From NCBI GenBank assembly GCA_964609835.1, contig CAZSTH010000006.1:5379-69378 (forward strand): DNA of 64,000 nt, in the 5' to 3' direction. Below the pieces are notes generated by a model that searched no databases, had not been told where the DNA came from, and saw only the letters and a program-made list of their open reading frames with translations. Source of the stretch: an uncultured Thermoanaerobaculia bacterium (GTDB lineage Bacteria; Acidobacteriota; Thermoanaerobaculia; Thermoanaerobaculales; Sulfomarinibacteraceae). Positions 6,249-22,848 of this stretch are shown here, piece after piece. The position numbers and the translations under genes were made by a program. The first letter of the stretch is position 1. Each line of letters starts with the position of its first letter.

Positions 6249-6293
6249 ATCCCACTCCCCCGCTGGCTGGACCCAACGCCGAGATTCACGAAC

Positions 6294-6430
6294 CTGCCTT
6301 CATGGTGAACGGAAGGCTCCTTTCACCTGACGGAAACGCCCTCGTGTACATTAATAGGGCACCGGCGACGCGTTGGCAATCGCCCGTTTGAGTGGTTTTT
6401 CTCATCACTTTGAGTGAATTTAAGGAGAAT
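6294..6430 (-). promoter_or_regulatory. Copy 1 of a 137-bp promoter/leader element, upstream of the giant repeat protein gene.
   Basis: On the minus strand there is a 33-nt AT-rich box AAATTCACTCAAAGTGATGAGAAAAACCACTCA (6421..6389). It is followed by -35 TTGCCA (6379..6374), a 17-nt spacer and -10 TATTAA (6356..6351). The leader hairpin GGTGAAAGGAGCCTTCCGTTCACC (6327..6304) encloses AGGAG, and ATGAAGGCAG follows from 6303. The element is 117/137 identical to 10298..10434. Confidence 0.7.
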
Positions 6431-6519: not shown

Positions 6520-9500
6520 TTACGACGGATCGCCAACCAGGACGAACGGCGCCCAGATCATTGCCGAGGGGTAGACGCGGCGGATTTCGCTGCGCGCCTG
6601 CCGAAGCGCCTCCGCCTTGGTTTCCCCGGCCAACCATCGAGAGTAAAAGATCTCCATGAGCTCGGCCGTGGGCTCGTCGGCCACCGACCACAGCGTGACC
6701 ACCACGCTGCGAGATCCGGCGGCCAGAAACGCGCGGCCCACCCCGAACACACCCTCTCCTTCCCGGACCTCGCCGATCCCGCTGTTGCAGGCCGAAACCA
6801 CCACCATTTCCGTGTCGACCAGCGGCATCGAGATGATCTCGTCGAGGGTCAGCAGGCCCCACTCGTCCCTTCGCCGGAAGGCTTCGTTGGCACCCGCCAA
6901 CGCCAGGCCGGCACGTGCGAGAGGGTTGTCCTCGGGGACCGCTCGCAGTCCGCTGTACTCCGACAACAGCAGGGGAGTCAGATTCGAAGGGTTCGCCGGA
7001 AGCTCACCTGGAATCGAGTACCCGTGGGTCGCGAAGTGCATCAACCACGGGGACTCGACGAAGTCCATCGCGCCCTCGTTGGCATCGAGGTCCGTGAACA
7101 CCAGAACGTCGAGCGAGGTTCGATCCTCCAGCAGGCGGACCACCGCGTCGGCTTCGCGCCGGGTGCCCGGCAGTCGACCGAGATGGACGTTCTGGAACGG
7201 TGCAATGCCCCAGGCGCGACGACGCGATCCGCGCCGCTCCACGACCCATCGGCTCTCGTCCGGCGGCTTGGGGGGCATGGTGTCGAAGTCCGGGTCGGCA
7301 ACCACGATCGCGCTTCGCTTCCGGAGCTGTGGTCCATCCCACAAAGCGAGGTCGCGGCCGTTCGAGAGGTAGCTGATGCGAAACTCCTCGTCGAGATAGG
7401 CCCCGGATCGATCGCGCATGCAACCGAAGGGCAGACGGGCGAGCGCACCGTCCGGGCTCACGAGCAGCCACTCGATGCCTGTCGTGGTAGTCGACCACGG
7501 GCCCACCAGCAGATCGAAGACCCGGCTCCCGAGGTTGCGCCCGGCGGTGGTCTGATCGAACCCCCGCGCGATCGCGGCCAGGTACTCGAACACCACGCCG
7601 TCGATCTCGGTCGCCGGGCCAAGATCGACGAGAAGGGGGCCGGCGGATCCGGCGGGCACCACGAAGACCAGATACCGGTCCTCGCCACCCACCTGGCCCG
7701 CGCGACAGAAATCGACGTAGGCCGAGCCTGGCGGCAGCCGGTCCTCGAGCTCACGGGTCGTGAAATCCACGCCGCCCGTCCAGAATCCGGATTCCGTCAG
7801 CTTTTGGTGGAGGTCCTTCTCGATCTCGGACCGCTCCTCGCGCAGCCGTTGGATCGCCTCCCGACCACGCCGGTCGCTGCGGCCCTCGAACCACAGCACT
7901 GCCAGCTCATTGTCGATCGCCCGGAGCTGCTCGGCCAGCTCTCGAGTCTCCTCAGATGGGTCGAGGGCCAGCATCTCGCTTCGTGAGCGCTGGGTTTCCA
8001 GCAACGCGCCCTTGATCCGCAACCAGCCGTCGAGCGTCCGCCGCACCTCGTGCGCGCCGGCGCCGGCGTGGCGAGCGGTGTGCAACATGACCTCTGCAGC
8101 CCTCGCACGCAGCCGCTGCAGCGCGGCCACCTGCTGTCGCTCCGAGAGAACCGAAAGCAGGCTCTGGAAGTGATCGAGATCCGCCGCCTGGGCCTGGAAG
8201 AACAGCTCCGCGCTCCGGCGGTGATTGCCCTCCCTTGCCAGCGCGTTGGCCAGCAGGTGCCGCGCCTCCGACATCAGTATGTAGTCGTCGCCGTACAGGG
8301 ACTGCCAACGTTCGAGGCAGTGCTCGAGAATGCGCGCGGCCTCCGCGTGCCGTCCCGCAGCGAGGTACACGCAGGCCAGCGCGTACTCGGTCTCGATGAC
8401 CTCCGGGGTGTCCGAACCGAAGCGCGCGATCAAGATCTCCCGCGCGCCGGCACACGCCGTGAGCGCTTCGGAGTACCGACGCGCCTGCATGAAGTAGATG
8501 CCCAGCTCCCGCAGAGCAACAGCCGTGTCCGGATGGTCGCGGCCAAGGTGTTCGACCCGCCGCGACAGTCCCTGGCGCTGCGCCGCGATCGCGGCAGACC
8601 GCTTCCCGTCGGCGCTCTCGATCTGCGCCTCGAGCCGATAGGTGTCAGCCATGTGGAGCGGGCGCCATGCGTGCATCATCAACCGGTGCAGCTCGTCGAC
8701 GATCCCACGGGCGTCGTCATACCTCCCGGAGGCGATCAGCACCTTCACGAGACCGGACTTGGCTCGAAAAAGAGCATCCCAATTCCGCCCCTGGCTGAGA
8801 TCGAACGCTTCGATCGCCGACCGGTAGAGCCTCTCTGCTTCGCCCAACCGCCCGGAACGGCGGTAGACATCCGCCACGCGCGCCACCAGCTCCGAGAACT
8901 CCCATCTCGACGAGGACATCTCCGACAACGCCGAATCGTCGAATGCCGCCAAGTGTCGGTTGGCCTCGCGGAAACGGCCGAGCTGCTGGAGGGACACCGC
9001 GAGCCGCGCGCGGATCAGCTCCTTCTCGATCATCGACTCCATTGAGCCGGAATCCGACAGCTCGAGGGCCCGCGACAGGGGAGCGACCGCCGCTTCGGGC
9101 CGGCCGAGCTCATACAGGGTGGCACCGACCCCCGCGTGCGCTTCAGCCACCAGTTCGTGCTCTCCAGGCAAAAGGCGTTCTCTCACCTCGAGCACCTCCT
9201 GCCACCGCCACAGCGCGTCGTCGAAGTTTTGTTCGCGATAGGCGAACGCCGCAGATCGCCGCTGTTCGCCGACCCGCCACAGCTCACGCCGGTCGGCGTC
9301 CGTGTCGAATGCCAGGTAGACCGACGCGATCGCCGCCACCGCGGCCCCGGTCCACGCCACTCCCAGAGGGAAACGCCTCAACACCAGCAACCAACAGACC
9401 ATTGCGAGCGCGAAGATGCCGATTCCCCGATTCACGCTCAGCACGATGCGTTCGTCGAGGGACAGCAGCCGCAGCTCGACCGCGAACCAGAGAAAGACGA

Positions 9501-10212
9501 CCGACGATGTCACGAAGAGTGCCGCGACCGCCGCCGACAGCCAGCGAGACGCGAATTGCAGCGTCGACCGAGTCTCGGCTTCGAAGAAACGCCGCGAGGC
9601 CAGAAAGCCGACCACCCCACATCCCAAGGCCGCGCACACGAACTTGAACGGCCACGACACCGGGATTGAAAGCCATCCGAGCAGAGGGCCCCCGAGGCTG
9701 ATCGTGCCGACCGTCACCACCGCGAACGTCAGGACCGCGAGCTCGACTGCGAGCACGGAAGACGCCCACCCGGGCAGACGGCCGAGCGCGGCGAGAACCG
9801 CCACCGCGATTGACACGACGCCGCAGCCCACGATGCCCAGTCGGAAGGCGGTCGCCAGATCCAACCCGAAGGCATCCCACAGATCCGCCAGCGCCAGCCA
9901 CAGCCCGCCGGCCGCGAGCCCGCCGAGCACGACGGCCGTCAGTATGCGCAGGAGCCTGTCCTGCCACGCCACATCGACGATCGCGGTCGCAGCCCTCGAG
10001 GCGACGAAAAGTACCGGCAGCAGGACGACGCAGAGCGTGAGCCAGCCCGGCCACAACCCAGCGGACCTCAGGAAACCACGAGCCACCAGCGCGCTGGGAC
10101 CGAAGAGCAGCAGCGTCATTGCCAGCGCTACGGCCACGCGGACTGCACCAGCCGATGGCGGCGGCTCGTTCGTACGGGCGGACGACGGTGTGCGTGCCGA
10201 GGAGACTGTCAT
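6520..10212 (-). CDS. Polytopic-membrane TPR-CHAT protein (caspase-like protease domain), 1,230 aa.
   Basis: The first ~300 aa are a run of hydrophobic helices. The middle has TPR-like repeats (e.g. AEAHAGVGATLYELGRPEAAVAPLSRALEL) and a coiled-coil stretch. The C-terminal CHAT signature includes HFATHGYS (His), VVVSACNSG (Cys) and GVGRAFLAAGSRSVVVTLWSVADEPTAELM. GAGG lies 7 nt upstream of the ATG. Confidence 0.85.
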   Translation of the reverse strand: MTVSSARTPSSARTNEPPPSAGAVRVAVALAMTLLLFGPSALVARGFLRSAGLWPGWLTLCVVLLPVLFVASRAATAIVDVAWQDRLLRILTAVVLGGLAAGGLWLALADLWDAFGLDLATAFRLGIVGCGVVSIAVAVLAALGRLPGWASSVLAVELAVLTFAVVTVGTISLGGPLLGWLSIPVSWPFKFVCAALGCGVVGFLASRRFFEAETRSTLQFASRWLSAAVAALFVTSSVVFLWFAVELRLLSLDERIVLSVNRGIGIFALAMVCWLLVLRRFPLGVAWTGAAVAAIASVYLAFDTDADRRELWRVGEQRRSAAFAYREQNFDDALWRWQEVLEVRERLLPGEHELVAEAHAGVGATLYELGRPEAAVAPLSRALELSDSGSMESMIEKELIRARLAVSLQQLGRFREANRHLAAFDDSALSEMSSSRWEFSELVARVADVYRRSGRLGEAERLYRSAIEAFDLSQGRNWDALFRAKSGLVKVLIASGRYDDARGIVDELHRLMMHAWRPLHMADTYRLEAQIESADGKRSAAIAAQRQGLSRRVEHLGRDHPDTAVALRELGIYFMQARRYSEALTACAGAREILIARFGSDTPEVIETEYALACVYLAAGRHAEAARILEHCLERWQSLYGDDYILMSEARHLLANALAREGNHRRSAELFFQAQAADLDHFQSLLSVLSERQQVAALQRLRARAAEVMLHTARHAGAGAHEVRRTLDGWLRIKGALLETQRSRSEMLALDPSEETRELAEQLRAIDNELAVLWFEGRSDRRGREAIQRLREERSEIEKDLHQKLTESGFWTGGVDFTTRELEDRLPPGSAYVDFCRAGQVGGEDRYLVFVVPAGSAGPLLVDLGPATEIDGVVFEYLAAIARGFDQTTAGRNLGSRVFDLLVGPWSTTTTGIEWLLVSPDGALARLPFGCMRDRSGAYLDEEFRISYLSNGRDLALWDGPQLRKRSAIVVADPDFDTMPPKPPDESRWVVERRGSRRRAWGIAPFQNVHLGRLPGTRREADAVVRLLEDRTSLDVLVFTDLDANEGAMDFVESPWLMHFATHGYSIPGELPANPSNLTPLLLSEYSGLRAVPEDNPLARAGLALAGANEAFRRRDEWGLLTLDEIISMPLVDTEMVVVSACNSGIGEVREGEGVFGVGRAFLAAGSRSVVVTLWSVADEPTAELMEIFYSRWLAGETKAEALRQARSEIRRVYPSAMIWAPFVLVGDPS

Positions 10213-10477: not shown

Positions 10478-11161
10478 TCAGCCGATGTGCTCGGCGAGCA
10501 CCCGCAGACGGTCGGGACGGTGCACCACGACCTGTTTCGGCTCGGCCGTGAGGAGGCCGTCCTCCTCGAGCTTCTTGAAGGTGCGCGACAGGACCTCGGG
10601 CGCGGTGCCGCACTGGGCGGCGATCAGGTTGCGGGGCTCGGCCAGCGGGATGGCGTCCCCCGGTACGAGGTCACGCGCACCAGCGCGGCCCAGGAGGTAG
10701 ATGGCCAGCCGCTCCTCCACCCGCCGCTGGGTCAGCAGCTCGAGCTTGGCCGCCAGCTTGCGGGTCCACGTCGAGACCGAGCCGAGCATGGCCAGCCCCA
10801 GCTCCGGCGAGGAGGCGAGCAGCTCCAGCAGCGCCGCGCGCGGCAGGCCCCACACGACACTTGCCGCCACGGCCTCGGCGGTGGCGGGATAGGTACCCTC
10901 GGCGAAGACCGCGGCCTCGGCGAAGCTCTGGCCCGGCTGGACCAGGTGCAGCAGCAGCTCGCGTCCCTGCGGCGAGTAGCGCACCAGCTTGAGGCTGCCG
11001 CTGACAACGGCGAACAGCGCCTCCGCCTCCTCGCCCTCGTGGAACAGGATCTCGCCGCGGTCCAGCCGGCGCTCGTGGCCGGCGGAGATCACCCGCCGTC
11101 GCTGGTCGTTGCTCAGCTGTTCGAGCAACGGCACCTCTTCCAGGGGCGAACGGTGGGACAT
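10478..11161 (-). CDS. Crp/Fnr-family transcriptional regulator (cNMP-binding domain plus C-terminal HTH).
   Basis: The cNMP-like region is RLDRGEILFHEGEEAEALFAVVSGSLKLVRYSPQGRELLLHLVQPGQSFAEAA. The HTH is RNLIAAQCGTAPEVLSRTFKKLEEDGLL, with an E-x-x-S-R recognition helix. There is no N-terminal Cys cluster. Confidence 0.85.
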   Translation of the reverse strand: MSHRSPLEEVPLLEQLSNDQRRRVISAGHERRLDRGEILFHEGEEAEALFAVVSGSLKLVRYSPQGRELLLHLVQPGQSFAEAAVFAEGTYPATAEAVAASVVWGLPRAALLELLASSPELGLAMLGSVSTWTRKLAAKLELLTQRRVEERLAIYLLGRAGARDLVPGDAIPLAEPRNLIAAQCGTAPEVLSRTFKKLEEDGLLTAEPKQVVVHRPDRLRVLAEHIG

Positions 11162-11192
11162 ACCGCGAGTCTATCGCAACGGCGAGGCGCCG

Positions 11193-12356
11193 CTACCATC
11201 CCGCGGACTTCGGGCAACCCGTGCAGCCGCGGGGGAACGGGTGCTCCGCGAGGGCGGCCTCGAGGTCGTCATGGGCACGGTCGAGGTCCCGCAACCCCGC
11301 CATGCCCCGTCCCAGCGCCCCCAGTGCGCACTCGCGGTAGCGGGCATCCGCGTCCACCCGGCGCTGCAGCGGCTCGATGAACGCCCGGTAGCCCGCACTC
11401 TCGAGGTACTCCCGGAGGCTGATCTCAGCGAGGTCGGCCGTAGCGGAGCAGTCGATCGCGATCACCTCTCCGTCCACCACCCGCGGTATCGGTCCTTCCA
11501 CCGGCAGGTTGAGCATGACGCACGGCGCCAGCCGGCCGTCCCAGCGCACGCTGACAATCGACCGAGGGTCCAGGTCACAGGTCAGCATCTCCTCGGGAGC
11601 GGTCGCCGGCAGCTGCAGGTCGACGCGGTGGCGCCGCGCCTCGCGCCGTGACTGGTCGAAGACGTCGAGGACTTCGCTGTCGACACCGTCGCCAGCCCAG
11701 ACAGCGAGGCTGTGCAGCTGCGGAGTCGGCGGGCAGTCGAGGTGGTTGACGAGAACCGTGTCGGCGCCGGCCACTCCTGCAGCTCGCACGACTCCCGGAA
11801 GATCGCTGACGTTCGTGCGGGTCAACAGGTAGCTGACGTGGAGGCGCGGGCGCCGGCGCCGTCGTCGGCGGGCAATGTCGGTCACGGCGGCGAGGACGTC
11901 GTCGAGGGACGACCCGTCCCGAAGCCGGCGGTTGTGCTCGGCGTCGCCCGCGACCGATACCGCCAGCACGTCGAGTCCACCGTCCGCGACCCACGGGGTC
12001 GCCTCGCCGAGGCCGTCGCCGTTGGTGGTCAGCCCGACCCGGCAGCCCGCATTCTCTGCGTCGTGGGCCATCCGCTCGATCTCCGGATGGAGCAGCGGCT
12101 CGCCCCAACCCTGGAGGTGGACGTGGCGCGCCAGCGCGAGGTCGGGCTGGAGGTGCGCCCAGGTCGCGTTCGACAGGTCGCCCTCGAGCCAGCGCTCGGC
12201 GAGCGCGCTCTGCGGGCACATCGCGCACCGCCGCCCGCAGCGGCTCGTGATTTCGACCTGCAAGGCCCGCAATCTTCGCCTGCTCACGTTGCCAGGATAG
12301 TCCTTTCGCCGGCCCGCCGCGGTATCCTCGAGCAGAGGCCTCAGCGTGGACTTCAC
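11193..12356 (-). CDS. Radical SAM enzyme with a Cys-containing C-terminal (SPASM/twitch-like) extension.
   Basis: The CxxxCxxC motif is present in LQVEITSRCGRRCAMCPQ, and GWGEPLLHP follows. Late cysteines occur at APCVMLN, IDCS and RGCTGCPKS. The start is set at GTG 12356, where GC3 rises. GTG 12287 is an alternative start. The track's ATG 12536 extension has low GC3. Confidence 0.75.
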   Translation of the reverse strand: MKSTLRPLLEDTAAGRRKDYPGNVSRRRLRALQVEITSRCGRRCAMCPQSALAERWLEGDLSNATWAHLQPDLALARHVHLQGWGEPLLHPEIERMAHDAENAGCRVGLTTNGDGLGEATPWVADGGLDVLAVSVAGDAEHNRRLRDGSSLDDVLAAVTDIARRRRRRRPRLHVSYLLTRTNVSDLPGVVRAAGVAGADTVLVNHLDCPPTPQLHSLAVWAGDGVDSEVLDVFDQSRREARRHRVDLQLPATAPEEMLTCDLDPRSIVSVRWDGRLAPCVMLNLPVEGPIPRVVDGEVIAIDCSATADLAEISLREYLESAGYRAFIEPLQRRVDADARYRECALGALGRGMAGLRDLDRAHDDLEAALAEHPFPRGCTGCPKSAGW

Positions 12357-12647
12357 CCGTGCTCTCTCTCGAAGACATCGACCGTCACGAGGTGCGGCGC
12401 TATTTCGAAAGGTACGGCCTCGAGGAGCTGCGTGATGAGATCGAGTGACCCGACCCCGGGATTGGATCTGGAGCGCGATCTCCCGACCACTGACGAGGAC
12501 GTGGACGCACTGAGGCGTCTTCAACCCCGAGCCCATCTCCGAGACCTGCGGGACCTGGACAGATTGAGGCCTCCCTCGTGGATCCGGGAGCTGTCGGACC
12601 GACGACGGCCCTTCCGCGATTGGCCGCTGTTCCGGCTCTGACCGTCC

Positions 12648-13676
12648 TCAACGATCGTCGGTCATGGCGGTGCCTCCGACGTGGGTGTAGAGCGGCGAGT
12701 CGAGCTCCTGGAGGCGGAAGTTGTACTCCGCCTCGGTGATGTTGGTGTGCCAGTGGCCGGCGGCCTGGAAGCCCGCCACCACCGCCAGGTAGAGCCCGAT
12801 TGCGAGGGCGGTGGCGGTGACCGGTCGCAGCCAGCGGGCGCGGCCGAGGAGCCGGGGCGGCCCCACCGAGAGGCATCCCTCCACCGGGCAGTTGACGACG
12901 CAGTCCTGGCACGATGTGCACTCGATGGAGCGCACTCGCTGCGCCGTGTGGACCCGCAGCCGACCGGGGCACGCGCGGGTGCAGCTGCGGCAGTCGGTGC
13001 ACAGCGCGGGATCGCGGGTGACCTTGAGCGGCGCCAGCAGCCCGAGCACCCCCACCAGCGCGCCGTAGGGGCAGAGGTAGCGGCACCACAGGTCACGGAC
13101 GAAGACCGAGCCGACGACGAGGATGCCGATGACGGCAACGGTCAGCCGCGACGGCTCGGCGAAGAACAGCCACATCTTGGCGTCGACCACCTTTGCATAG
13201 GGGCTCGCGAGAAAGGCCTCGACCCCGTTCGGGTCCATCGCGAACCAGATCGCCCACACGAAGAAACCCAGCAGCACGAATTTGAGGCCGCGCAGCGGGA
13301 TGTCGAGCCACCTCGGCGGGGTCAGCGTGCGGCCGACCGCACGGATACCGAGGCGCCCCAGCAGTTCGGAAACCAGGCCGACCGGGCAGAGGTGGGAGCA
13401 GAACGACCGTGGCACCACCAGCGACATCAGACAGATGCCGACAAAAATGGCGAGGCCGGCGGGGTGGATGGGGTCGACCACGCCGGTGTGGAGGAGGTGC
13501 CGCAGGCCGAGCATGGCGTCGATGGGCAGGAAGGCCTCGACGCCGGGCGGCCGCGGCACCGACGGCCAGCGGCCCTGCATGTGCGGCACCACCCAGAGGG
13601 TGAACTGGACCCCGATGGCGAGCACCACGGCGGTCACGATCCACTGGACGGCGCGGCGGGCTCGGAGGACCTTCAT
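12648..13676 (-). CDS. Membrane-bound polyferredoxin (NapH/MauN/NosR-like 4Fe-4S protein).
   Basis: TM helices are interleaved with CPVGLVSELL and RYLCPYGALVGVL. The C-terminal ferredoxin motifs are CTDCRSCTRACP and CTSCQDCVVNCP. I chose the MKVLRARRAVQWIV start (ATG 13676). TTG 13754 is the track's alternative start. Confidence 0.75.
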   Translation of the reverse strand: MKVLRARRAVQWIVTAVVLAIGVQFTLWVVPHMQGRWPSVPRPPGVEAFLPIDAMLGLRHLLHTGVVDPIHPAGLAIFVGICLMSLVVPRSFCSHLCPVGLVSELLGRLGIRAVGRTLTPPRWLDIPLRGLKFVLLGFFVWAIWFAMDPNGVEAFLASPYAKVVDAKMWLFFAEPSRLTVAVIGILVVGSVFVRDLWCRYLCPYGALVGVLGLLAPLKVTRDPALCTDCRSCTRACPGRLRVHTAQRVRSIECTSCQDCVVNCPVEGCLSVGPPRLLGRARWLRPVTATALAIGLYLAVVAGFQAAGHWHTNITEAEYNFRLQELDSPLYTHVGGTAMTDDR

Positions 13677-13758
13677 GGGGACAGCGTGGACGATTCGAGA
13701 CGTCACGGCATTGACCGGCGTCAAGGGGAATGTCACGGGGAGGGGGAGATTCAAAATT

Positions 13759-13816
13759 TCGGATGTCGGATGTCGGATTTTCGGAAGGCTGTGCTGTGCG
13801 GGCGGGACGCCCGCAC
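13759..13816. repeat. Intercistronic 3x heptamer tandem repeat plus a perfect 9-bp GC hairpin.
   Basis: TCGGATG TCGGATG TCGGAT lies at 13759..13779. GTGCGGGCG-gga-CGCCCGCAC lies at 13796..13816. Both sit in the 166-bp gap between the NTPase-fusion gene and the polyferredoxin gene. Confidence 0.6.
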
Positions 13817-13842
13817 CACCATGTCGGCAAGCTCACTCGTCC

Positions 13843-14991
13843 CTATCGCGCATCGAGATCGATACTCCGCGCGGGGGTCTCGCCGATGGCCTCGAGGATC
13901 TCGTCCGCGGCGCGCGCTCCACTGGCCTCCACGTCGACCACCGTGGCATCGGTGGCACCGAGGGCGGCGAGCAGCGACGGCACCAGCGCCCGCCGCACCA
14001 CCACCACGAAGGCCCGCGGCCGCGCCCTCCGCAGCGCGCCGCGCACCGCCGGCAGGTGGCCGCCGCCGCGCAGCTCCACCGGGCCGAGCTCGTCGACGAT
14101 CAGCACGCTCGCGTCGTCCGCCCGCTCGAGAGCCTGCCGAGCGAGATCGAATCCCTGCCGCTCGAAGACGAATTGAGTGCCGTGCTCGCCTTGACCGTGC
14201 TCCACCCGGGTCGCGATCCGGGCGGACGCTCCGGAGGCGAGATCCGCCACATCGAAGCCCACCTTGCGCCCTTCCTTCCGCACCGCGGTCTGCACGAAGC
14301 CCGCCACCGGCCGGCCCGCTGCCTGCAGGCCCCGCACCAACTCGCCGACGGCGGTAGTCTTGCCGCCGTCGGTGGGTCCCGTGACCACGATCGTCCGAAC
14401 CGGGGTGTCGAGGCCGGTGCGCGGTGCCGTGAGCGCGCGGTGGCCGCGGAGCGCCGCCGCCGCGGCGGCCTCGTCGGCCACCCGCGCGGTGTGGGCCAGC
14501 AGCACCTCGCCGAGCGCCGGCAACCGGCGTACGAGGTCGAGGCGGCCGGTCCTTCGCATGGCGGCCGCGGTCCACACCTCCGACGCGGTGTCGGCGATTC
14601 GCGGCAGGCTGTTGAGCGCCAGGCCGAGCACCAGGCCGAGCCGCTCCAGACCGAGCGCGCTCGTCGATTCCAGAATGCGGTCGGCGTCAATCCGTCGCGA
14701 GGCCACCGCGGCGGCCGTCGCCAGCACCAGCAGCCGCAGCAACACCAGCGCTCCGCTGACCAGTCCTCGCTCGGGACCCTGCGCCCACGCCACCACCGCG
14801 AAAGTCACGGCCGCGGCGAAAACCAGCGCCAGTGTGAACCCTGCCCGCAGCAGCGAGGCGACGGCGCGGCGGTCGAGCAGCGCGGCCGCTGCCAGCGCGA
14901 CGGCCGCCACCAATGCCGCCGGGACCGGATCGCGCACCATTACCACTGCGACCACCGCCAGCAGCAGCACGATACCCGCGGCGCGAGTCAC
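13843..14991 (-). CDS. Fusion of an EcfT/CbiQ-like transmembrane component with a C-terminal THEP1/DUF2478-like P-loop NTPase.
   Basis: The N-terminal half is hydrophobic and carries the paired coupling motifs AAMRRTG and AAALRGH. The C-terminal half has IVVTGPTDGGKTT (Walker A) and VLIVDELGPVEL (Walker B). The GTG start at 14991 overlaps the upstream stop (GTGA). The track's longer ORF from 15555 overlaps the neighbouring gene. Confidence 0.7.
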   Translation of the reverse strand: MTRAAGIVLLLAVVAVVMVRDPVPAALVAAVALAAAALLDRRAVASLLRAGFTLALVFAAAVTFAVVAWAQGPERGLVSGALVLLRLLVLATAAAVASRRIDADRILESTSALGLERLGLVLGLALNSLPRIADTASEVWTAAAMRRTGRLDLVRRLPALGEVLLAHTARVADEAAAAAALRGHRALTAPRTGLDTPVRTIVVTGPTDGGKTTAVGELVRGLQAAGRPVAGFVQTAVRKEGRKVGFDVADLASGASARIATRVEHGQGEHGTQFVFERQGFDLARQALERADDASVLIVDELGPVELRGGGHLPAVRGALRRARPRAFVVVVRRALVPSLLAALGATDATVVDVEASGARAADEILEAIGETPARSIDLDAR

Positions 14992-15572
14992 CTTTGGCCC
15001 CCGACCCGCTGTGCGACCCTCCCCGCCACCCACCACGACCACAGCCCTCCGACCGCCCCCACCAGTCCGCTGACCGCCACCAGCCCCGCGAGCACGAGCT
15101 CCGGACGCAGCCCGTTCAAACCGAGACCCGCGGCCGTCGCCTGCATCAGCTCGAGCGCGGCGCCGGCCGCCTCGGGACCCGCGACCACCCACACCGAGAC
15201 CAGGCTCTGGATGGGGTTGGTGGCGAGGGTCAGGAAGCCGCCGACCGCGGCCCCCGCCGCGCGCCCGCCGGTGCCGGTCATGGCCGCCTCCACCGCGATG
15301 GCCTGGACGGCAATGCCGATGATGGGACCAGGGGAAAGGCCGCCGATGGTGAAGATCTTGAGGAACACCGCCACCGCTCCCGCCAACAGGCAGACGCCGG
15401 GCCGAGGCTGCAGCCGCCGCAGGCAGATCAGGCACAACAGCCCGGCGAGACCGATCAGGCTGCCTCGGAACGGCACCCGTCCGAGGTGCAGCGCGGCACC
15501 CGCGGTCGCCTCGAGGGCGCCCCACAACGCTCCGAACAGGGCGGCGTAGGTCCACGCCCGGACGTCGGTCAC
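14988..15572 (-). CDS. Polytopic membrane protein, possibly the substrate-capture (S) component of the ECF-type transporter.
   Basis: The 194-aa product is almost entirely hydrophobic (MTDVRAWTYAALFGALWGALEATAG..). It overlaps both neighbours by 4 nt (GTGA) and has high GC3. Confidence 0.6.
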   Translation of the reverse strand: MTDVRAWTYAALFGALWGALEATAGAALHLGRVPFRGSLIGLAGLLCLICLRRLQPRPGVCLLAGAVAVFLKIFTIGGLSPGPIIGIAVQAIAVEAAMTGTGGRAAGAAVGGFLTLATNPIQSLVSVWVVAGPEAAGAALELMQATAAGLGLNGLRPELVLAGLVAVSGLVGAVGGLWSWWVAGRVAQRVGGQR

Positions 15573-16900
15573 GCCGACACCTCCTCGAGGGCGCGATCGG
15601 CGATCCTCATGTGGCGGTGGACCGCCGATAGGATTTCGAGCCGGTGCGAGATCAGGAGGTAGGCCCTCCCCTTCTCGGCCCGCCTGTGAATCAGGTGGAT
15701 GAGCGCCGCCAGGTCAACGGGGTCGAGCCCCTGCCCGGGCTCGTCGATGATCATCAGCCGCGGCCGGCGGAGGTCGAGCGCCGCGTGCACCAGGCGCTGG
15801 CGCTCGCCCCGCGACAGGGTCCACGGCGCGCGCGCCGCCAGGTGCTCGAGGCGATGCCGGCTCAGGACCTTGGCTGCCTCCGCCGCCGACACACCGCCCG
15901 TCGTGACCTCCCCGAGGACCGTGCGTGCGAAGAGCTGCAGCTCGGCCGACGGCAGCATCAGGGCCGTCGGCTCCGGCCTCCGCACGCGACCCGCCGCGCC
16001 TCCGCGCACACCTGCGAGCACCCGTCCCAGGGTCGACTTCCCGACGCCGTTTGCGCCGCTCAGCAGCAGCACCTCGCCGGCCCTCAGCTCGAGAGCCGCG
16101 TCCTGCACGAGGACCTGCCCGCCTCTGCGGATCACGAGGTCCGTCGCCGAGAGCACGATCTCGTCGCCGGGCGGCGCGGGACGACCGAAGGCCGGCGGCT
16201 CCGTTGGTTGGCAGCCCATCAGCGTGCCGCGGTCCAGGCGAAGCCAATCGTTCACCACCTCCCCCACCCGCCACCCGGCCTGTTCCGCCAGCACGACGCT
16301 GCCGCCTGCGGAGGCGTGCTCGGCCAGGAGGCGTCCGAGGGCGGCCGCTCCATCGCCATCGAGATGGGCCGTGGGCTCGTCGAGCAGAACCGGACGGCGG
16401 CCCGCCGCCAGCGCTGCCGCCAGCGCCACCCGCTGCCGCTGGCCCGACGAGAGCTCGGAGATCCGCCGTCCGCGCAGCCCGTCGATCGCCAGCGCCGCCG
16501 CGGCGCTGTCCGCCGCGGCATCGGATCCATACAGACGCCTGGCCGCCGCCAGTTCGTGCCCGACGGTCGCCAGGAACAGCTGTGCCTCCGGACGGTCGAG
16601 GCAGGTCCCGAGCAGGTGGGCGCGCTGCCCGGGATCGAGCTCGCCGAGGGCCTCGCCGCCGAGCTCCAGACGGCCGTTCACCTCGCCGCCGTGGTGCCAC
16701 GGCACCAGCCCCGACAGCGCGTGCAGCAGGGACGTCTTGCCCGTACCGGAGCGGCCGCAGACCGCGACGACCCGACCCGGCCCGACATCCAGCTCCAGTC
16801 CGCGGAGCGCAGGCCTGGTCATGCCCGGCCTGCGCACCGTCAGATCGCGGGCGGTCAGCAGCGCCCGCCCGCCGGTCGCACCCGATGTCGCAGCGCCCAT
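15569..16900 (-). CDS. Duplicated ABC ATPase (EcfA-EcfA'-like fusion).
   Basis: It has two Walker A motifs (GRSGTGKTS, GANGVGKST). It also has two signature/Walker B pairs (LSSGQRQRVALAAALAAGRRPVLLDEP and LSRGERQRLVHAALDLRRPRLMIIDEP). Confidence 0.85.
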   Translation of the reverse strand: MGAATSGATGGRALLTARDLTVRRPGMTRPALRGLELDVGPGRVVAVCGRSGTGKTSLLHALSGLVPWHHGGEVNGRLELGGEALGELDPGQRAHLLGTCLDRPEAQLFLATVGHELAAARRLYGSDAAADSAAAALAIDGLRGRRISELSSGQRQRVALAAALAAGRRPVLLDEPTAHLDGDGAAALGRLLAEHASAGGSVVLAEQAGWRVGEVVNDWLRLDRGTLMGCQPTEPPAFGRPAPPGDEIVLSATDLVIRRGGQVLVQDAALELRAGEVLLLSGANGVGKSTLGRVLAGVRGGAAGRVRRPEPTALMLPSAELQLFARTVLGEVTTGGVSAAEAAKVLSRHRLEHLAARAPWTLSRGERQRLVHAALDLRRPRLMIIDEPGQGLDPVDLAALIHLIHRRAEKGRAYLLISHRLEILSAVHRHMRIADRALEEVSA

Positions 16901-16989: not shown

Positions 16990-17787
16990 ATGCTCGACCT
17001 TTTCCTCGAACCCGGATTCTGGGCCGCACTGTTCTCGGTCACGTTGGTCCAGATCGCGCTCGGAGCCGACAACCTCATCATCATCACGATCCTCGCCGGC
17101 AAGCTGCCGGCCGAACAGCAGGGGCGTGCGGTGCGCTGGGGACTGATCATGGCCATGGCCTTCCGGTTGATCCTGCTGGCGCTGGTCAGCTGGGTGCTAC
17201 GGATTGCCGACACACCGTTTCTCGAGATCGATGGCTCACCGCTCGGCATCCATTTCGAGGGCTCGGTGAGCGTCAAAGCGCTGGTGCTCGTTGGCGGCGG
17301 GCTGTTTCTGATCTGGTCCGGCATCAAGGAGCTGCGCCACAAGATCAAGGGCGCCGAGCACGAGGTGGAGGCGGCCGCCAGCTTCGCACAGGTGCTGACC
17401 ACGATCGTCGGCCTCAACCTGCTGTTCTCGGTGGACTCGATCCTGACCGTCGTCGGGATGACCGACATCTATCTCGTCATGGCCGGCTCGGTGGTCATCT
17501 CGGTCGTGCTGATGCTGGTCTTCGCCGAGCCCATCGCACGCTTCATGCGCGCCAACCCGGACTTCGAGATTCTCGGGCTCTTCGTGCTGCTGCTGATCGG
17601 CTTCGTGCTTTTCCTCGAGGGCGGCCACGTGGCGCACATGATGGTCAATGGCTCGGAGTTCCCCTACATCCCGCAGTGGATCACGATCTTCATCCTGCTG
17701 CTGATGTTCTCGGTGGATCTGTACCAGAACTGGCTCGAAAGGGAACGCGACCAGCAGCCCGTGGAGCTGCGGCGCCGCAAGAAGTAG
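16990..17787 (+). CDS. TerC-family integral membrane protein.
   Basis: MLDLFLEPGFWAALFSVTLVQIALGADNLIIITILAGKLP is typical of the TerC family. The ATG is in frame within the longer spurious track ORF 15925..17787. Confidence 0.8.
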   Translation: MLDLFLEPGFWAALFSVTLVQIALGADNLIIITILAGKLPAEQQGRAVRWGLIMAMAFRLILLALVSWVLRIADTPFLEIDGSPLGIHFEGSVSVKALVLVGGGLFLIWSGIKELRHKIKGAEHEVEAAASFAQVLTTIVGLNLLFSVDSILTVVGMTDIYLVMAGSVVISVVLMLVFAEPIARFMRANPDFEILGLFVLLLIGFVLFLEGGHVAHMMVNGSEFPYIPQWITIFILLLMFSVDLYQNWLERERDQQPVELRRRKK

Positions 17788-17857
17788 CGGCCCGGGAAGC
17801 GGGAATGGCGGCAACCTCGCCCCCGGTTGGCATTGTCGATCCGAAGGAGGTCCGCAC

Positions 17858-19282
17858 ATGCATTTCACAGTCACCGCCCATGCCGCCGCCTGGACCGTGG
17901 CCGCCGCCCTGGTCCTCGGCTCCGCGAGTGCTTCCTCCTCGGACACGTTGGTCCGGGGAACCGCCACCTACCGTGAGCGCATCGCGATGCCGCCCGGTGC
18001 GGTCCTCGAGGTCACCCTCGAGGATGTCTCGCTGGCGGATGCCCCCGCAGGCGTCATCGCAAAGGTGCGGTTGGAGAACATCGGCAACCCGCCCTACGAG
18101 TTCGAGGTCCCCTACGACCCTGCGCAGATCGACGACCGGCAGACCTACGCCGTGCGGGCGCGGCTGCTGTTCGACGGGCAGCTGATGTTCACCTCGGACA
18201 CGCACCACCCGGTGCTGACACGCGGTGCGGGAGACGAGGTCGCGATGGTGCTGGTTCGAGCGGGTCTCTCCCATGGTGCCGACGCCGCCGACCGGGGTGT
18301 GGACACGGCCGGCCTGCACGACCTGCCGGCGACCTTCGAGGGCGTGCTGCCGTGCGCCGACTGCGAGGGCATCCGCTATCACCTCGATCTTTTCGAGGAC
18401 GAGGCCTTCTTCCTGCGCACGGCCTACCTCGGGCGCGGTGATGATGCGGTGTTCGACGACATCGGCTCGTGGGCCGTCTCCAGCGACGGCAGCCGGCTCG
18501 CCCTGTTCGGCGGCCGCGAAGCGCCGCTGTTGTTCCGCATCGTCGAACCGAACACCCTGCGCACGCTCGACATCGAGGGGCGCGAGATCGACTCCGATCT
18601 GAACGACGACCTCGAGCGCGCCTCGGAGTTCACCCCCATCGAGCCGCGCCTGGCGATGCGCGGCATGTACCGTTACATGGCCGACGCCGCTCTCTTCGAG
18701 GAGTGTCTGACCGGCAAGAGCCTGCCGGTGGCGATGGAGGCCGACAACATCGCCCTCGAGCGGGGCTACCGTGAGTCGGGGGTCGAGCCGGGCCAGCCGG
18801 TCCTGGTCATCCTCGAGGGTCGGCTCGCCCGACGGCCGGCGATGGAGAGCGAGGGCACCGTGCTGAGTTTGGTGCCCGAACGCTTCATCGGCGTCTGGCC
18901 CGGCGAAACCTGCGGGCCGCGAATGGCCAATGCCGAGCTGCTGAACACCTACTGGAAGCTGACCCGGGTCGGCGACGGGCCGGTGATTTTCGGCAGGCAA
19001 CAGCGCGAGCCGCACATGGTCCTGCATGCGCAGGAGAATCGTCTCAGCGGTTCCGGCGGCTGCAACCGGTTGGTGGGCGGCTTCGAGATCGACGGGCGCG
19101 AGATCGCCTTCGCCCAGATGGCGAGCACCATGATGGCGTGTCCGGAGGAGATGAACACCGAGCAGGCCTTCTCAGACGCGCTGTCCAGGGCCCGCACCTG
19201 GCGGGTGATCGGCTCGCATCTCGAGCTGTACGACGAACAGGGACAGATGGTGGCAAGGTTCGAGGCCCGGCACATGGACTGA
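17858..19282 (+). CDS. Secreted three-domain fusion: YbaY-like, NlpE N-terminal-like and META/HslJ-like domains.
   Basis: AAGGAGG lies upstream and a signal peptide is present. YRERIAMPPGAVLEVTLEDVSLADAPAGVIA is YbaY-like. FEGVLPCADCEGIRYHLDLFEDEAF is the NlpE motif. LLNTYWKLTRVG..LSGSGGCNRLVGGFEIDG..MASTMMACPEE is META-like. Confidence 0.8.
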   Translation: MHFTVTAHAAAWTVAAALVLGSASASSSDTLVRGTATYRERIAMPPGAVLEVTLEDVSLADAPAGVIAKVRLENIGNPPYEFEVPYDPAQIDDRQTYAVRARLLFDGQLMFTSDTHHPVLTRGAGDEVAMVLVRAGLSHGADAADRGVDTAGLHDLPATFEGVLPCADCEGIRYHLDLFEDEAFFLRTAYLGRGDDAVFDDIGSWAVSSDGSRLALFGGREAPLLFRIVEPNTLRTLDIEGREIDSDLNDDLERASEFTPIEPRLAMRGMYRYMADAALFEECLTGKSLPVAMEADNIALERGYRESGVEPGQPVLVILEGRLARRPAMESEGTVLSLVPERFIGVWPGETCGPRMANAELLNTYWKLTRVGDGPVIFGRQQREPHMVLHAQENRLSGSGGCNRLVGGFEIDGREIAFAQMASTMMACPEEMNTEQAFSDALSRARTWRVIGSHLELYDEQGQMVARFEARHMD

Positions 19283-19312
19283 CCAGCGAGTCGCGCGGGT
19301 TACCATGGCGCC

Positions 19313-19825
19313 ATGACCGAATCACTCAGCACCTCGGACCCCCGCACCATCCTGCGATTCGCCACCGCCGAGGACGTGCCGCTGATCCTCGACTTCATCC
19401 GCCGCCTCGCCGAGTACGAGAAGATGGCGGACGACGTGGTCGCCGACGAGCGAGGGCTCCGCGAGACCCTGTTCGGCGAGCGGCCGTCTGCGGAGGTCGT
19501 CATCGCGGAGCACGAGGGCCGTCCGGCCGGCTTCGCCCTCTTTTTCCACAACTACTCCACCTTCCTCGCCCGCCCCGGGCTCTACCTCGAGGACCTGTTC
19601 GTGGTGCCCGAGCTGCGCGGCCGGGGCATCGGGCGCGCACTGCTGGTGTGTCTGGCGTGGCTCGCGCTCGAGCGCGGCTGCGGCCGATTCGAGTGGTGGG
19701 TGCTGGACTGGAACGAGCCCGCGATCCGGTTCTACAGGCGTCTCGGCGCAGAGTCGATGGACGAGTGGACCGTATTCCGGGTCACGGGTGATGCCCTGAA
19801 GCGGCTCGCCGGTGCCGAGTCGTAA
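19313..19825 (+). CDS. GNAT-family N-acetyltransferase (diamine acetyltransferase-like).
   Basis: The matching motifs are LRFATAEDVPLILDFIRRLAEYEK and LYLEDLFVVPELRGRGIGRALL. Confidence 0.8.
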   Translation: MTESLSTSDPRTILRFATAEDVPLILDFIRRLAEYEKMADDVVADERGLRETLFGERPSAEVVIAEHEGRPAGFALFFHNYSTFLARPGLYLEDLFVVPELRGRGIGRALLVCLAWLALERGCGRFEWWVLDWNEPAIRFYRRLGAESMDEWTVFRVTGDALKRLAGAES

Positions 19826-19900
19826 TCGATTTTTTGGTTCATGTCTGCGCAATTCCCGCGGTTGAGAGACCGGAGGTTGCAACCAACGAAATCTCGGATC

Positions 19901-20455
19901 TCAAAACCAGACGACCACCATCAGGTACGCTACGGGAATCGCCAGTCCTGCGATCAGCAGCCACCCTCCCCTGCCCCCGAGCCCCTTCTTCCCGGTGATG
20001 ATGAAGATGCCGGTACCCGCCAGCACCAGAAGCCCGACGGCGTAGAGGTCGGCAAACCAGGTCCAGAAGCCCTTGCCGTGGTTGAGGTGGAGGTAGTTGA
20101 GCTCGAAGAAAGCGTAGCGCCGGCGGACGGTCTCGTCGGCCACCCGCCCATCCGGCAACGAAACGGCCAGGGTCCGCTGGTCGAGGAAGATCTTGAGCCC
20201 GTCCGGTGCCATGCGCACGACCGACCTGGGCTCCTCGCCGATCCCGAGGCGATCCAGAATCTCGCCGGCGACCCAAACAGTTGGGCCTTCCGGGAGCACG
20301 CCCACCTCCCGCACCTCGGTGCGGATGACGTAGTTGGGGTTCCAGTCCTCGATGTGGTTGACCGCCACGCCCGAGATCGCGTAGATCACCGTCAGCCCGG
20401 CAAAGAAGTAGCCGACATCGCGGTGGGTGGCGATGATCAGCTTGCGCAGCTTCAA
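19901..20455 (-). CDS. PepSY-associated TM helix protein.
   Basis: The matching motifs are MKLRKLIIATHRDVGYFFAGLTVIYAISGVAVNH and LNYLHLNHGKGFWTWFADLYAVGLLVLAGTGIFI. Confidence 0.7.
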   Translation of the reverse strand: MKLRKLIIATHRDVGYFFAGLTVIYAISGVAVNHIEDWNPNYVIRTEVREVGVLPEGPTVWVAGEILDRLGIGEEPRSVVRMAPDGLKIFLDQRTLAVSLPDGRVADETVRRRYAFFELNYLHLNHGKGFWTWFADLYAVGLLVLAGTGIFIITGKKGLGGRGGWLLIAGLAIPVAYLMVVVWF

Positions 20456-20459
20456 GTGC

Positions 20460-20981
20460 TCAGCCCTTGATGACAGCTCCGGTGCCCCGAATGAGATAGA
20501 CGTACCGGTCCTGGGCGGGAATCTCGCAGCTCATGCCGTCGCCGCCACCTTGAACCTGAGCCGGCCCGGAGCGGTCGCAGTCTTCTCCCTGCTCGTGATC
20601 GTGCGACGCCGCGGTGCGCGCTTCCAGCTGCTCGGGCGTCAGCTCGATGGCCTCGAAGACGCCCTCGGCCGAAGCCCGGTGCCCCATCGCAGTATACGGA
20701 AAGACGATCACGCCGTCCTCGACCTTGATGCGGACGCCATTCCCCGACTCGGGGTCCGTCACCTGCACCCAGCAGCCGCGCTTCTTGCACACCCCGGTGA
20801 TGACGCCGTCGACACGGATCCTGTTGCCGACGTAGTCCTGCGGGTTTTCGAGGAGGGTGTCGATGGCAACCGCCTGCTCGAGGGTGACGCCATCGCCGTA
20901 GGTCTCGGCGGCATCGCCCGCCGCGGCGGGAAGAGCGATGAACGCCAACGCCACCGCCCAGAGAATGAAGAGTCGCTGCAT
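20460..20981 (-). CDS. DUF4920-like secreted protein.
   Basis: A signal peptide is present, followed by RIRVDGVITGVCKKRGCWVQVTD..VRIKVEDGVIVFPYTAMGHRASAEG. Confidence 0.65.
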   Translation of the reverse strand: MQRLFILWAVALAFIALPAAAGDAAETYGDGVTLEQAVAIDTLLENPQDYVGNRIRVDGVITGVCKKRGCWVQVTDPESGNGVRIKVEDGVIVFPYTAMGHRASAEGVFEAIELTPEQLEARTAASHDHEQGEDCDRSGPAQVQGGGDGMSCEIPAQDRYVYLIRGTGAVIKG

Positions 20982-21047
20982 GTCGTGTTCCTCCGTTGCG
21001 CCGGTTTCGCGATCACCGCGTGATGGTGGCCGCTCGGGGGCACCGTG

Positions 21048-21737
21048 TCAAGTGAAGAGGTCGGGGCGAACCGAGCGCAACGACAGCCAACGGGTCTCCG
21101 CGACGATCAGGTGGTCGTGGACCGTCACGCCGACCACCTCACCGCCGCGCGCCAGTCGGCGGGTCAGGTCGAGGTCGTCACGGCTCGGCTCGAGGTCGCC
21201 CGACGGGTGATTGTGAAACAGCAGAACGCCGGCGGCGCGGTCGAGGAGCGCGAGGCGGAAGAGCTCGGCCCCGTCCACCGGCGCCTGGGTGCGCGTGCCC
21301 AGTGTCAGCTCGCGCATCGCCAGATACCGGTGGCGTCCGTCGAGGCACAGGAAACCGAAGATCTCGCGCCCCTCCCGGCCGAGCCGGCGAACCAGGAACT
21401 CCCCGGCCAGCTGCGGCTGGTCGAGGCGAACGGCGCTGCGAAGCTCGGCCTTGGCGATCCGCAGCCCGAGCTCGGCAGCCGCCACCAGGGTCGCCGCCTT
21501 GGCGGGCCCGATTCCGGGGCGCTCCACGAGCTCGGCCACCTCCATTCTGGAAACGCCCGCCAGTCCCCCCCAGTCGTAGAGCAGGGCGTGGGCCTCTGCG
21601 AGCGCGCCGCGACCTCGGGTGCCGGTGCGGATCAGCACCGCAATCAGCTCCGCGTCCGACAGCGACGCCGGACCGTACTCCAGGAGGCGCTCGCGCGGCC
21701 GTTGCGACGCCTCCATCTCGCGAATGAACTGTGCCAT
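21048..21737 (-). CDS. radC: RadC-like JAB/MPN domain protein.
   Basis: The N-terminus MAQFIREMEASQRPRERLLEYGPASLSDAELIAVLIRTG and the HNHPSGDLEPSRDD JAMM motif are both present. The internal ATG at 21737 was chosen over the track's 21962 start. Confidence 0.85.
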   Translation of the reverse strand: MAQFIREMEASQRPRERLLEYGPASLSDAELIAVLIRTGTRGRGALAEAHALLYDWGGLAGVSRMEVAELVERPGIGPAKAATLVAAAELGLRIAKAELRSAVRLDQPQLAGEFLVRRLGREGREIFGFLCLDGRHRYLAMRELTLGTRTQAPVDGAELFRLALLDRAAGVLLFHNHPSGDLEPSRDDLDLTRRLARGGEVVGVTVHDHLIVAETRWLSLRSVRPDLFT

Positions 21738-21915
21738 AGAGATTTCCCCGGGGACAGCCGCCCCGGCGTGGACGGGAACCGCGATTATCCTACCATCGCA
21801 CAGGTGAGAGATCCAGCAAGTGGAGAACAGTAACGAGAATCTTCCTCGACTCGGCAGGTTCGATATGGTACAAAATGGTGTCGGAACGCGGTTGCCGTGC
21901 GTAGGGGGGATTGTT

Positions 21916-22323: not shown

Positions 22324-22334
22324 CTTTCAATTTT

Positions 22335-22455
22335 TAATTCTCAATTTTGAATTCTCAATGTCGGGCCCGGTCGTAGGTCCGCAACTGGCGGACTTCGCTG
22401 CCGATCGATCAGCGCGGGTGGGATCTGAGACTTGACACTTGAAAACTGAGAATCA
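22335..22455. repeat. AT-rich imperfect inverted-repeat element between convergent genes. It could be MITE-like or a long bidirectional terminator.
   Basis: The left arm is AATTCTCAATTTTGAATTCTCAATGTC (22336..22362) and contains a direct AATTCTCAAT x2. The right arm is GAGACTTGACACTTGAAAACTGAGAAT (22427..22453). About 20 of 26 positions pair, including a perfect ATTCTCA/TGAGAAT terminus. The arms flank ~64 bp of GC-rich sequence. Confidence 0.55.
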
Positions 22456-22832: not shown

Positions 22833-22848
22833 TTGTCAGAGGTGAGAG

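Follow-up and report, generated by a model that had tools for sequence, protein, structure and literature searches.

An ECF-type transporter with a THEP1-type NTPase fusion, next to a predicted self-regulated polyferredoxin unit, in an uncultured Thermoanaerobaculia bacterium

Six genes at positions 10478-16900 of a 64,000-nucleotide stretch from an uncultured Thermoanaerobaculia bacterium (contig CAZSTH010000006.1; we call the whole stretch the window and count positions from its first letter) all lie in the same orientation on the minus strand, as the initial annotation had stated. We tentatively read these genes as two juxtaposed units rather than as one pathway. Unit A (13843-16900) encodes a predicted energy-coupling factor (ECF)-type transporter whose T subunit is fused to a THEP1-type nucleoside triphosphatase (NTPase), and unit B (10478-13724) encodes a membrane polyferredoxin, a radical S-adenosylmethionine (SAM) enzyme and a Crp/Fnr-type regulator behind a conserved FNR/Dnr-type box. 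Our best explanation overall, to which we give a little less than an even chance, is that unit A would import molybdenum or tungsten (Mo/W) or a related substrate, that unit B would regulate itself, and that the two stand side by side. The interest lies in the NTPase fusion, in related single chains that lack a nearby ATP-binding cassette (ABC) gene and in a possible Mo/W route, not in the six-gene 'operon' itself.

The three genes of unit A are joined by GTGA start/stop overlaps at 15569-15572 and 14988-14991, exactly as described before. The first gene (15569-16900, minus strand) encodes a 443-residue fused double ABC ATPase, the A-A' unit of the transporter, in which ABC_tran (PF00005) matches twice (E 5e-38). 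The duplication claimed for this protein is real; its label as EcfA-like is not specifically supported, with scores under both the CbiO and the ECF_ATPase cut-offs (the best NCBIfam match, the CbiO subfamily, reaches 147 bits vs a cut-off of 211.8) and generic ABC proteins as the closest solved sequences. The second gene (14988-15572, minus strand) encodes a 194-residue membrane protein that we assign to a new family of substrate-binding (S) components. It has no Pfam or NCBIfam match at E <= 0.01 and its profile matched no solved structure, which left the fold search alone as informative. The AlphaFold2 model (pLDDT 86) has seven helices, and its top Foldseek match is the ECF S component 5EDL (probability 1.0, TM 0.53), which we take to be Bacillus subtilis YkoE; RibU, ThiT, CbiM and FolT come lower in the list, CbiM at rank 20. 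Given the weak E value of 0.078, the assignment holds at the level of fold only. Fourteen of 30 members of the S family show weak matches to Trep_Strep, the YkoE family (best E 5e-4), and the window protein itself scores 11.4 bits (E 0.32) against this model (PF09605), below the gathering threshold of 28.7 bits. Polar residues that are invariant in the S family include D3, R5, W7, E21, K72 and E95.

The third gene (13843-14991, minus strand, GTG start) encodes the fusion protein of 382 residues. Its first part (residues ~1-190, 14422-14991) is EcfT-like: the family profile matches the EcfT chains 4HZU_T and 4HUQ_T (E 0.002; positions 4-182 against residues 22-227 of 266), PF02361 (CbiQ) is recorded on many homologues, and an L-R-G-H motif that is invariant in the family would fit the Arg-containing coupling helix of EcfT. 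A P-loop NTPase domain (residues ~198-370, ~13880-14400) takes the place of the ~40 residues that end a typical EcfT. This C-terminal half scores 78.1 bits against NTPase_1 (PF03266; cut-off 23.9) and 29.6 bits against DUF2478, its fold matches human NTPCR (2I3B, TM 0.70) and Aquifex THEP1 (1YE8, TM 0.75), and its Walker A (G-x4-GKT) and Walker B (DELGPxE) motifs are intact and invariant in the family. With Pfam score, Walker motifs and fold in agreement, the domain is a member of the THEP1/NTPCR NTPases, and the EcfT-like/THEP1 fusion proposed in the initial annotation is confirmed. We found no literature description of a T subunit fused to a THEP1-type NTPase or of this S family, and nothing relevant on DUF2478, on THEP1 with ECF, on ECF with tungstate or on the families TIGR04311 and TIGR04317, to which we return with the radical SAM enzyme.

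ECF transporters are established as importers of vitamins, cobalt and nickel, and two group I systems invite comparison. Unit A resembles YkoEDC, the thiamine/hydroxymethylpyrimidine (HMP) system of B. subtilis, in encoding a fused, YkoD-like double ATPase together with one S and one T component; 5EDL is its best S fold match and Trep_Strep the single weak sequence family of its S component. It differs from YkoEDC in its gene order (A-S-T), in an S component that stays under the Trep_Strep threshold, in a T component that is truncated and NTPase-fused, in the lack of a THI riboswitch and in genomic contexts unrelated to thiamine. With CbiMNQO and NikMNQO, which import trace metals of cofactors, unit A shares a CbiQ-family T component, as the PF02361 matches of the homologues indicate. 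However, its S component is not CbiM/NikM-like and lacks the N-terminal Met-His metal-binding motif, and there is no CbiN/NikN-type partner. The NTPase domain has the fold, the above-threshold NTPase_1 match and both Walker motifs of THEP1 (Aquifex aeolicus aq_1292) and NTPCR, but those proteins are free-standing and soluble whereas this domain is fused to a transporter membrane subunit. THEP1 and NTPCR are known as NTP hydrolases, with no known kinase substrate and no assigned cellular role, the human member being still enigmatic. We conclude from these sequence comparisons that unit A is a predicted translationally coupled, group-I-like ECF-type uptake transporter with a new S family and a truncated EcfT::NTPase fusion. 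The cluster contains no periplasmic binding-protein or BPD_transp gene, and if unit A carries Mo or W, its architecture differs from ModABC, TupABC and WtpABC. No molybdenum cofactor (Moco) riboswitch, THI riboswitch or other Rfam element was found.

To see how far the genes travel together, we scanned the T::NTPase alignment against one genome per species and obtained 48 loci. All are from metagenome-assembled genomes (MAGs) of uncultured organisms and almost all are from Acidobacteriota, namely Thermoanaerobaculia (including Ca. Sulfomarinibacteraceae and Thermoanaerobaculaceae) and Holophagae; the closest relatives of the window locus are of the Sulfomarinibacteraceae type. The ATPase, S and T::NTPase genes occur together in every locus whose contig reaches upstream (tblastn with the window proteins). 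Downstream gene content, counted among the 37 loci with at least 3.5 kb of downstream sequence, is far more variable: the polyferredoxin gene follows the trio in 21 of them, the regulator gene in 24 and the radical SAM gene in five (the window, L001, L002, L009 and L012), while 13 have the trio with none of the three unit B genes.

These counts bear on the view that all six genes form one pathway, in which the polyferredoxin would reduce an imported substrate and the radical SAM enzyme would modify it, or the substrate would serve to mature a cofactor, with the Crp/Fnr regulator in control of all. The shared orientation agrees with such a pathway, as does the fact that the window, L001, L002, L009 and L012 have the same six-gene order even though L002 has different flanks; this recurrence shows that the arrangement is not chance. 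The frequency with which the polyferredoxin or the regulator comes after the trio (21-24 of 37 loci) also fits, and the nearest sub-threshold families of the radical SAM enzyme are named as metalloenzyme and tungsten-cofactor maturases. However, the six-gene set is a lineage-specific assembly and not a conserved pathway, because the radical SAM gene is present in so few loci and its homologues are solitary elsewhere (41-48% identity), even within a MAG that carries the trio at another place (L004 vs L041). A separate, conserved promoter moreover serves the polyferredoxin gene, no FNR-type box lies ahead of the ATPase gene in the window, and the trio often stands alone. We consider a single six-gene pathway quite improbable. 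The coupling of import, electron delivery and radical chemistry that had been suggested for the cluster is not supported; only the three transporter genes are always together. The genes are co-oriented, but a 166-bp gap with a promoter and a gap of ~290 bp intervene, and one operon is not shown.

The 166-bp gap 5' of the polyferredoxin gene contains the conserved promoter. No FNR-type site had been seen by eye in the initial annotation, but there is one: an exact palindrome, TTGACGCCGGTCAA, lies at 13711-13724, centred 41.5 nt upstream of the polyferredoxin ATG, and is the sole match with at most one mismatch in the window. Every one of the 23 loci with a polyferredoxin gene has a TTGAY-N4-RTCAA palindrome in front of this gene, and exact boxes number 45 in 836 kb of loci vs ~0.5 expected by our own estimate from base composition. 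Among the 12 loci of the window's type (group A), the distance from the start of the box to the start codon is 48 nt in 10, the window included, and 49 nt in L034 and L054, which were left out of the promoter column count. In another 11 loci the box is further upstream, and a second group of loci has it at ~60 nt together with a GGAGG. With positions numbered from the start codon's first base, the 12 aligned promoters share an invariant TTGAC-N4-GTCAATGC at -48 to -32 and invariant A-11, C-8 and T-7, columns that correspond in the window to a -10-like hexamer, CACGCT, at 13683-13688 (minus strand). The 12 aligned group-A promoters lack a Shine-Dalgarno sequence, and the start codon is GTG in 10 of the 12 loci.

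Class II CRP/FNR-dependent promoters are built with a box centred at -41.5 and the -10 element at -12 to -7, and because the polyferredoxin gene shows this geometry, we infer that it has such a promoter. The predicted transcription start coincides with the start codon at 13676, and the polyferredoxin mRNA is therefore probably leaderless. Two upstream TGAC elements 11 bp apart (-70 to -67 and -59 to -56) are invariant in the related promoters of L001, L002, L008-L012, L014, L017, L022 and L024; in the corresponding region of the window (13677-13760, minus strand) only the proximal element is kept (GTGACA at 13731-13736). The paired elements might bind an additional regulator or an additional regulator dimer. 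Scans for consensus promoters and terminators found nothing. In L001 and L002, small open reading frames (ORFs) of 50 and 100 residues lie between the T::NTPase and polyferredoxin genes; we considered them as peptide substrates of the radical SAM enzyme and rejected them, as they overlap or abut the promoter box.

The box is not confined to the polyferredoxin gene. In related loci the same TTGAY-N4-RTCAA palindrome precedes a multihaem cytochrome c gene; in L022 and L032 its centre is ~42 nt away from where the ORF starts, and these boxed cytochrome genes suggest a small local Dnr-type regulon with further, predicted leaderless transcripts. The cytochrome gene (PF13447, ~430 residues) lies upstream of the trio and is divergent from the ATPase gene in L016, L022, L023, L025, L032, L033, L051 and L052; the window has no such gene.

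The first gene under the box (12648-13676, minus strand) encodes a 342-residue membrane polyferredoxin of the NapH/NosR family, in agreement with its earlier description. Fer4_5 matches twice (CSHLCP and CRYLCP) and two CxxCxxCxxxCP motifs follow the 4Fe-4S pattern. The protein is like NapH, NosR and NirI in being polytopic, in its two CX3CP and two 4Fe-4S ferredoxin motifs, and in its predicted control by an FNR/Dnr-type box, under which nap, nos and nir genes are often found. It differs in falling far under both family cut-offs (67.5 bits vs 213 for NapH/MauN, TIGR02163; 40 bits vs 1000 for NosR, with only model positions 497-663 matched), in lacking the FMN-binding periplasmic domain of NosR, and in having an extra C-terminal helix with a GHWHT motif. 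No NapA, NapG or NosZ partner is present among the window ORFs examined.

The last gene of unit B (10478-11161, minus strand) encodes the regulator, a 227-residue protein with cNMP_binding and HTH_Crp_2 domains. Its closest solved protein is DNR of Pseudomonas aeruginosa (3DKW; E 6e-24, 88 bits, residues 3-219 against 7-223). As had been noted, it carries an FNR-type E-x-x-S-R recognition helix (E-V-L-S-R, residues 189-193) and no N-terminal Cys cluster for the [4Fe-4S] centre of FNR proper; the only Cys of the entire protein lies within the DNA-binding domain. In these features, in its size, in the full-length match and in the target half-sites TTGAC and GTCAA it is like DNR, which is haem-based and responds to nitric oxide (NO). 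It differs in that the match reaches only 88 bits and the nearest NCBIfam family is FtrB, below cut-off. We conclude that this Dnr-like regulator would bind the box and autoregulate the polyferredoxin-(radical SAM)-regulator unit.

Between these two genes lies that of the radical SAM enzyme (11193-12356, minus strand; ~387 residues, with an uncertain start, here the GTG at 12356). The Radical_SAM domain (PF04055) scores 41.7 bits vs 29.5, and the family, of ~365 residues, shares the C40-x3-C44-x2-C47 motif and the invariant C-terminal cysteines C260, C279, C378 and C381, which is the C-terminal Cys cluster described before. Four such residues would suffice to bind a single auxiliary cluster. 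Many homologues carry a PF13186 (SPASM) annotation; the window enzyme does not have all seven cysteines of the SPASM motif. The best NCBIfam matches are TIGR04311 (132 bits vs a cut-off of 400) and TIGR04317 (112 vs 380), metalloenzyme and tungsten cofactor oxidoreductase maturases that likewise combine a radical SAM core with a Cys-rich C-terminal domain. The enzyme differs from them in its sub-cut-off scores, in having only four conserved auxiliary cysteines and in the lack of an adjacent enzyme of the aldehyde oxidoreductase (AOR) family in the window. Its closest solved structure is PqqE, at 50 bits. The profile searches place the enzyme in no characterised curated subfamily and, as the radical SAM enzyme, polyferredoxin and regulator all score far under the NCBIfam cut-offs, we agree with the initial annotation that the cluster matches no known annotated pathway.

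Homologues of the radical SAM enzyme at 41-48% identity stand in unrelated neighbourhoods, one of them (L004) in the same Methylomirabilota bin as the trio locus L041, and five stand-alone contexts contain no partner gene. Among distant stand-alone homologues (L005; L006/L007), that of L005 lies beside an AIRS/AIRS_C protein and an EamA transporter and that of L006 directly after a rhodanese; these single contexts give a faint hint of sulfur or selenium chemistry. A candidate for the cluster's target enzyme was not found in the rest of the window, where CHAT-TPR, subtilase, glycosyltransferase and sulfatase genes occur. Anaerobic sulfatase maturases (anSMEs) are radical SAM/SPASM enzymes, and the window encodes a 1008-residue sulfatase-domain protein at 42790-45816 (minus strand); we see no link, as the sulfatase gene is 30 kb away and no anSME is among the listed NCBIfam matches. 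The gap before the radical SAM gene (12357-12647) measures ~290 bp in the window vs 40 bp in L001 and ~107 bp in L002. The GC content at third codon positions (GC3) in the radical SAM frame across it is 0.60, and the frame is therefore predicted to be non-coding there. The same gap holds a plus-strand ORF of 67 residues (12438-12641; MRSSDPTPGLDLERDL...WPLFRL) with an intermediate GC3 of 0.74 and no Pfam match, which may represent a gene, a remnant or part of a promoter.

The substrate of unit A has to be judged from its relatives. A HMMER search of 1.84 billion representative proteins gave 46 matches below 1e-30 and revealed three further architectures: distant T::NTPase fusions, proteins of 565-590 residues, and an ABC_tran::NTPase_1 fusion (P0467). 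In the 565-590-residue proteins all three parts are joined in a single S::T::NTPase chain (the S alignment matches P0411 in hhalign with a probability of 97.7%), and one distant T::NTPase is preceded by an S-like gene (hhalign probability 99.3%). Because such single chains and S/T::NTPase pairs exist, we predict that S, T and NTPase act as one unit and that the S-T-NTPase core is an evolutionarily conserved entity. The single-chain and paired loci have no ABC gene within 8 kb except a ModC-like one, which raises the question of whether the ABC-less forms would be energised by a shared EcfAA' encoded elsewhere or by the THEP1-type NTPase itself. These ABC-less forms, both the S::T::NTPase chains and the S/T::NTPase pair, come from metagenome contigs (L056-L061, L063-L067).

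Several of these neighbourhoods point to Mo/W. In L056-59 the gene order is XdhC, a MocA-like NTP_transf_3 protein, Fer2, MoCoBD, FAD_binding_5, DUF4213/DUF364, a TonB receptor, S::T::NTPase and DUF362. L060 combines a TonB receptor, DUF364 and S::T::NTPase and adjoins a ModABC-like set (SBP_bac_11, BPD_transp_1 and ABC_tran+TOBE). In L065, S and T::NTPase are followed by a histidine kinase, a ThiS/MoaD-like protein, a xanthine dehydrogenase (XDH)-family enzyme, a TetR regulator and an aldehyde ferredoxin oxidoreductase (AFOR). The complete trio has such neighbours as well: in six Thermoanaerobaculaceae loci it is directly followed by a 900-residue MoCoBD aldehyde-oxidoreductase-type gene and a DUF362 gene with a twin-arginine (TAT) signal, in four loci a NapA-like molybdopterin oxidoreductase gene and a NapH-like gene lie upstream, and in four a TonB receptor gene lies directly upstream. 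Of 11 independent context types, about 6 include an Mo/W enzyme, an Mo-handling gene, DUF364, DUF362 or a TonB receptor, which by a rough estimate, with no computed test, is well above the chance expectation. Since the relatives repeatedly adjoin Mo/W enzymes and Mo-handling genes, we propose with moderate confidence that the S-T-NTPase core may supply Mo/W or a related chelate or cofactor. The metal/cofactor theme of the initial annotation is plausible in the light of these contexts, not as one six-gene pathway. The literature contained no description that we could find of this recurring Mo/W placement or of S::T::NTPase single chains without nearby ABC genes.

The main rival to Mo/W supply is an organic substrate. 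Unit A might import a vitamin-like or purine/pterin-type compound that a P-loop kinase traps by phosphorylation, as with PnuC and NadR, and the link to xanthine dehydrogenase would then reflect catabolism of purines or heterocycles. The S fold and the single weak sequence family of the S component, both of the thiamine/HMP-type YkoE/Trep_Strep kind, agree with this, as does the deposition of THEP1 as 'kinase-like'. XDH-family enzymes are generally known to act on purines and other heterocycles, and L063 has nucleoside-salvage neighbours (a NupC-type nucleoside transporter, uridine kinase, a phosphoribosyltransferase and IMPDH, with no Mo/W gene). However, the TonB receptor, DUF364 and ModABC-like neighbours of L060, where no catabolic enzyme is present, fit a metal better, and so do the NapA-like neighbours elsewhere. 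XdhC and the MocA-like protein are cofactor-handling genes, and THEP1 and NTPCR are known as NTP hydrolases, with no known kinase substrate. We regard an organic substrate as unlikely.

It is also unlikely, in our judgement, that the two units have nothing to do with one another and that the neighbourhoods are coincidental, unit B being a piece of an NO- or anoxia-responsive respiratory regulon and unit A unrelated housekeeping transport. DNR as the closest solved regulator would agree with this, together with the same box before multihaem cytochrome c genes, the qNor-like and NapA-like genes in some related loci, and the four context types that have no Mo/W gene. Yet Mo/W-enzyme or Mo-handling genes lie one to three genes from the core in several independent architectures and lineages, more often than the few per cent per random neighbourhood that we would roughly expect, and the regulator gene comes directly behind the trio even where the polyferredoxin gene is missing (L016, L033, L041 and L051).

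A number of observations weigh against our preferred explanation, in which unit A imports Mo/W or a related species and unit B is self-regulated and juxtaposed. Nothing in the ATPase marks it specifically as EcfA, the S component matches its best solved structure only modestly, and the S fold is nearest a thiamine/HMP-type vitamin binder rather than the metal-binding CbiM/NikM. ECF systems are known to import cations and organic vitamins but not oxyanions, and the absence of a Moco riboswitch or other Rfam element counts on the same side. When the Mo/W idea was checked prospectively on the trio-only loci L037, L040 and L047, no Mo/W genes were found; with L063 these make up the four context types that lack them, and the window itself has no Mo/W association. 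All relatives are from uncultured genomes or metagenomes, and the proposed substrate is read from context. A/B adjacency is common only within Thermoanaerobaculia; even so, with 24 of 37 loci showing it, we may be underrating a functional link.

If this explanation is right, unit A would deliver to the cytoplasm either a form of molybdenum or tungsten or a related metal chelate or cofactor precursor. The fused NTPase, on the cytoplasmic end of an EcfT without its last segment, could hand over or trap the substrate as a MobB-like/metallochaperone NTPase or as a kinase. In unit B, the Dnr-like regulator, which has no O2-sensing Fe-S cluster, would bind the TTGAC-N4-GTCAA box centred at -41.5 and activate a probably leaderless mRNA for a NapH/NosR-type, quinol-linked polyferredoxin and for the regulator itself, with the radical SAM enzyme inserted into the unit in this lineage only. 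It is speculation that the two units are functionally coupled, for example through reduction of the imported species when oxygen is absent or NO is present. We also entertain, as a bolder and rather doubtful possibility, that the S-T-THEP1 core is an unrecognised ECF-derived acquisition system for Mo/W (or a cofactor or chelate) that acts downstream of TonB receptors and DUF364, in some lineages without an ABC ATPase, with the THEP1-type NTPase energising or gating transport; the long-orphan THEP1/NTPCR/DUF2478 NTPases would then have a first cellular role.

Should the proposed role hold, it would add a new supply route for Mo/W or a cofactor in widespread uncultured Acidobacteriota of soil and sediment. 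A function for the THEP1/NTPCR/DUF2478 family would be suggested as well. The invariant box at -41.5 and the -10 geometry make this promoter a clean case in which FNR-type activation of a predicted leaderless mRNA, mostly starting at GTG, can be tested.

A conserved synteny block flanks the trio in genomes of the Sulfomarinibacteraceae type (window 16990-24800; L001, L008-L012, L017, L022 and L034). It encodes TerC, an NlpE/META lipoprotein, a GNAT acetyltransferase, a PepSY_TM-like protein, DUF4920, RadC, a Fur-family regulator and an extracytoplasmic-function sigma factor, and there are several metal-related families among them. The gene directly behind that of the regulator (6520-10212, minus strand) encodes a 1230-residue protein that combines a multi-helix membrane region at its N-terminus, TPR repeats and, at its C-terminus, a CHAT protease domain (PF12770, E 2e-59); it is not kept beside the cluster in related loci. 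Beyond it, an ORF of more than 2099 residues (3-6299, minus strand) runs off the window start, and an 819-residue subtilase with an SLH domain is encoded at 53027-55486 (plus strand).

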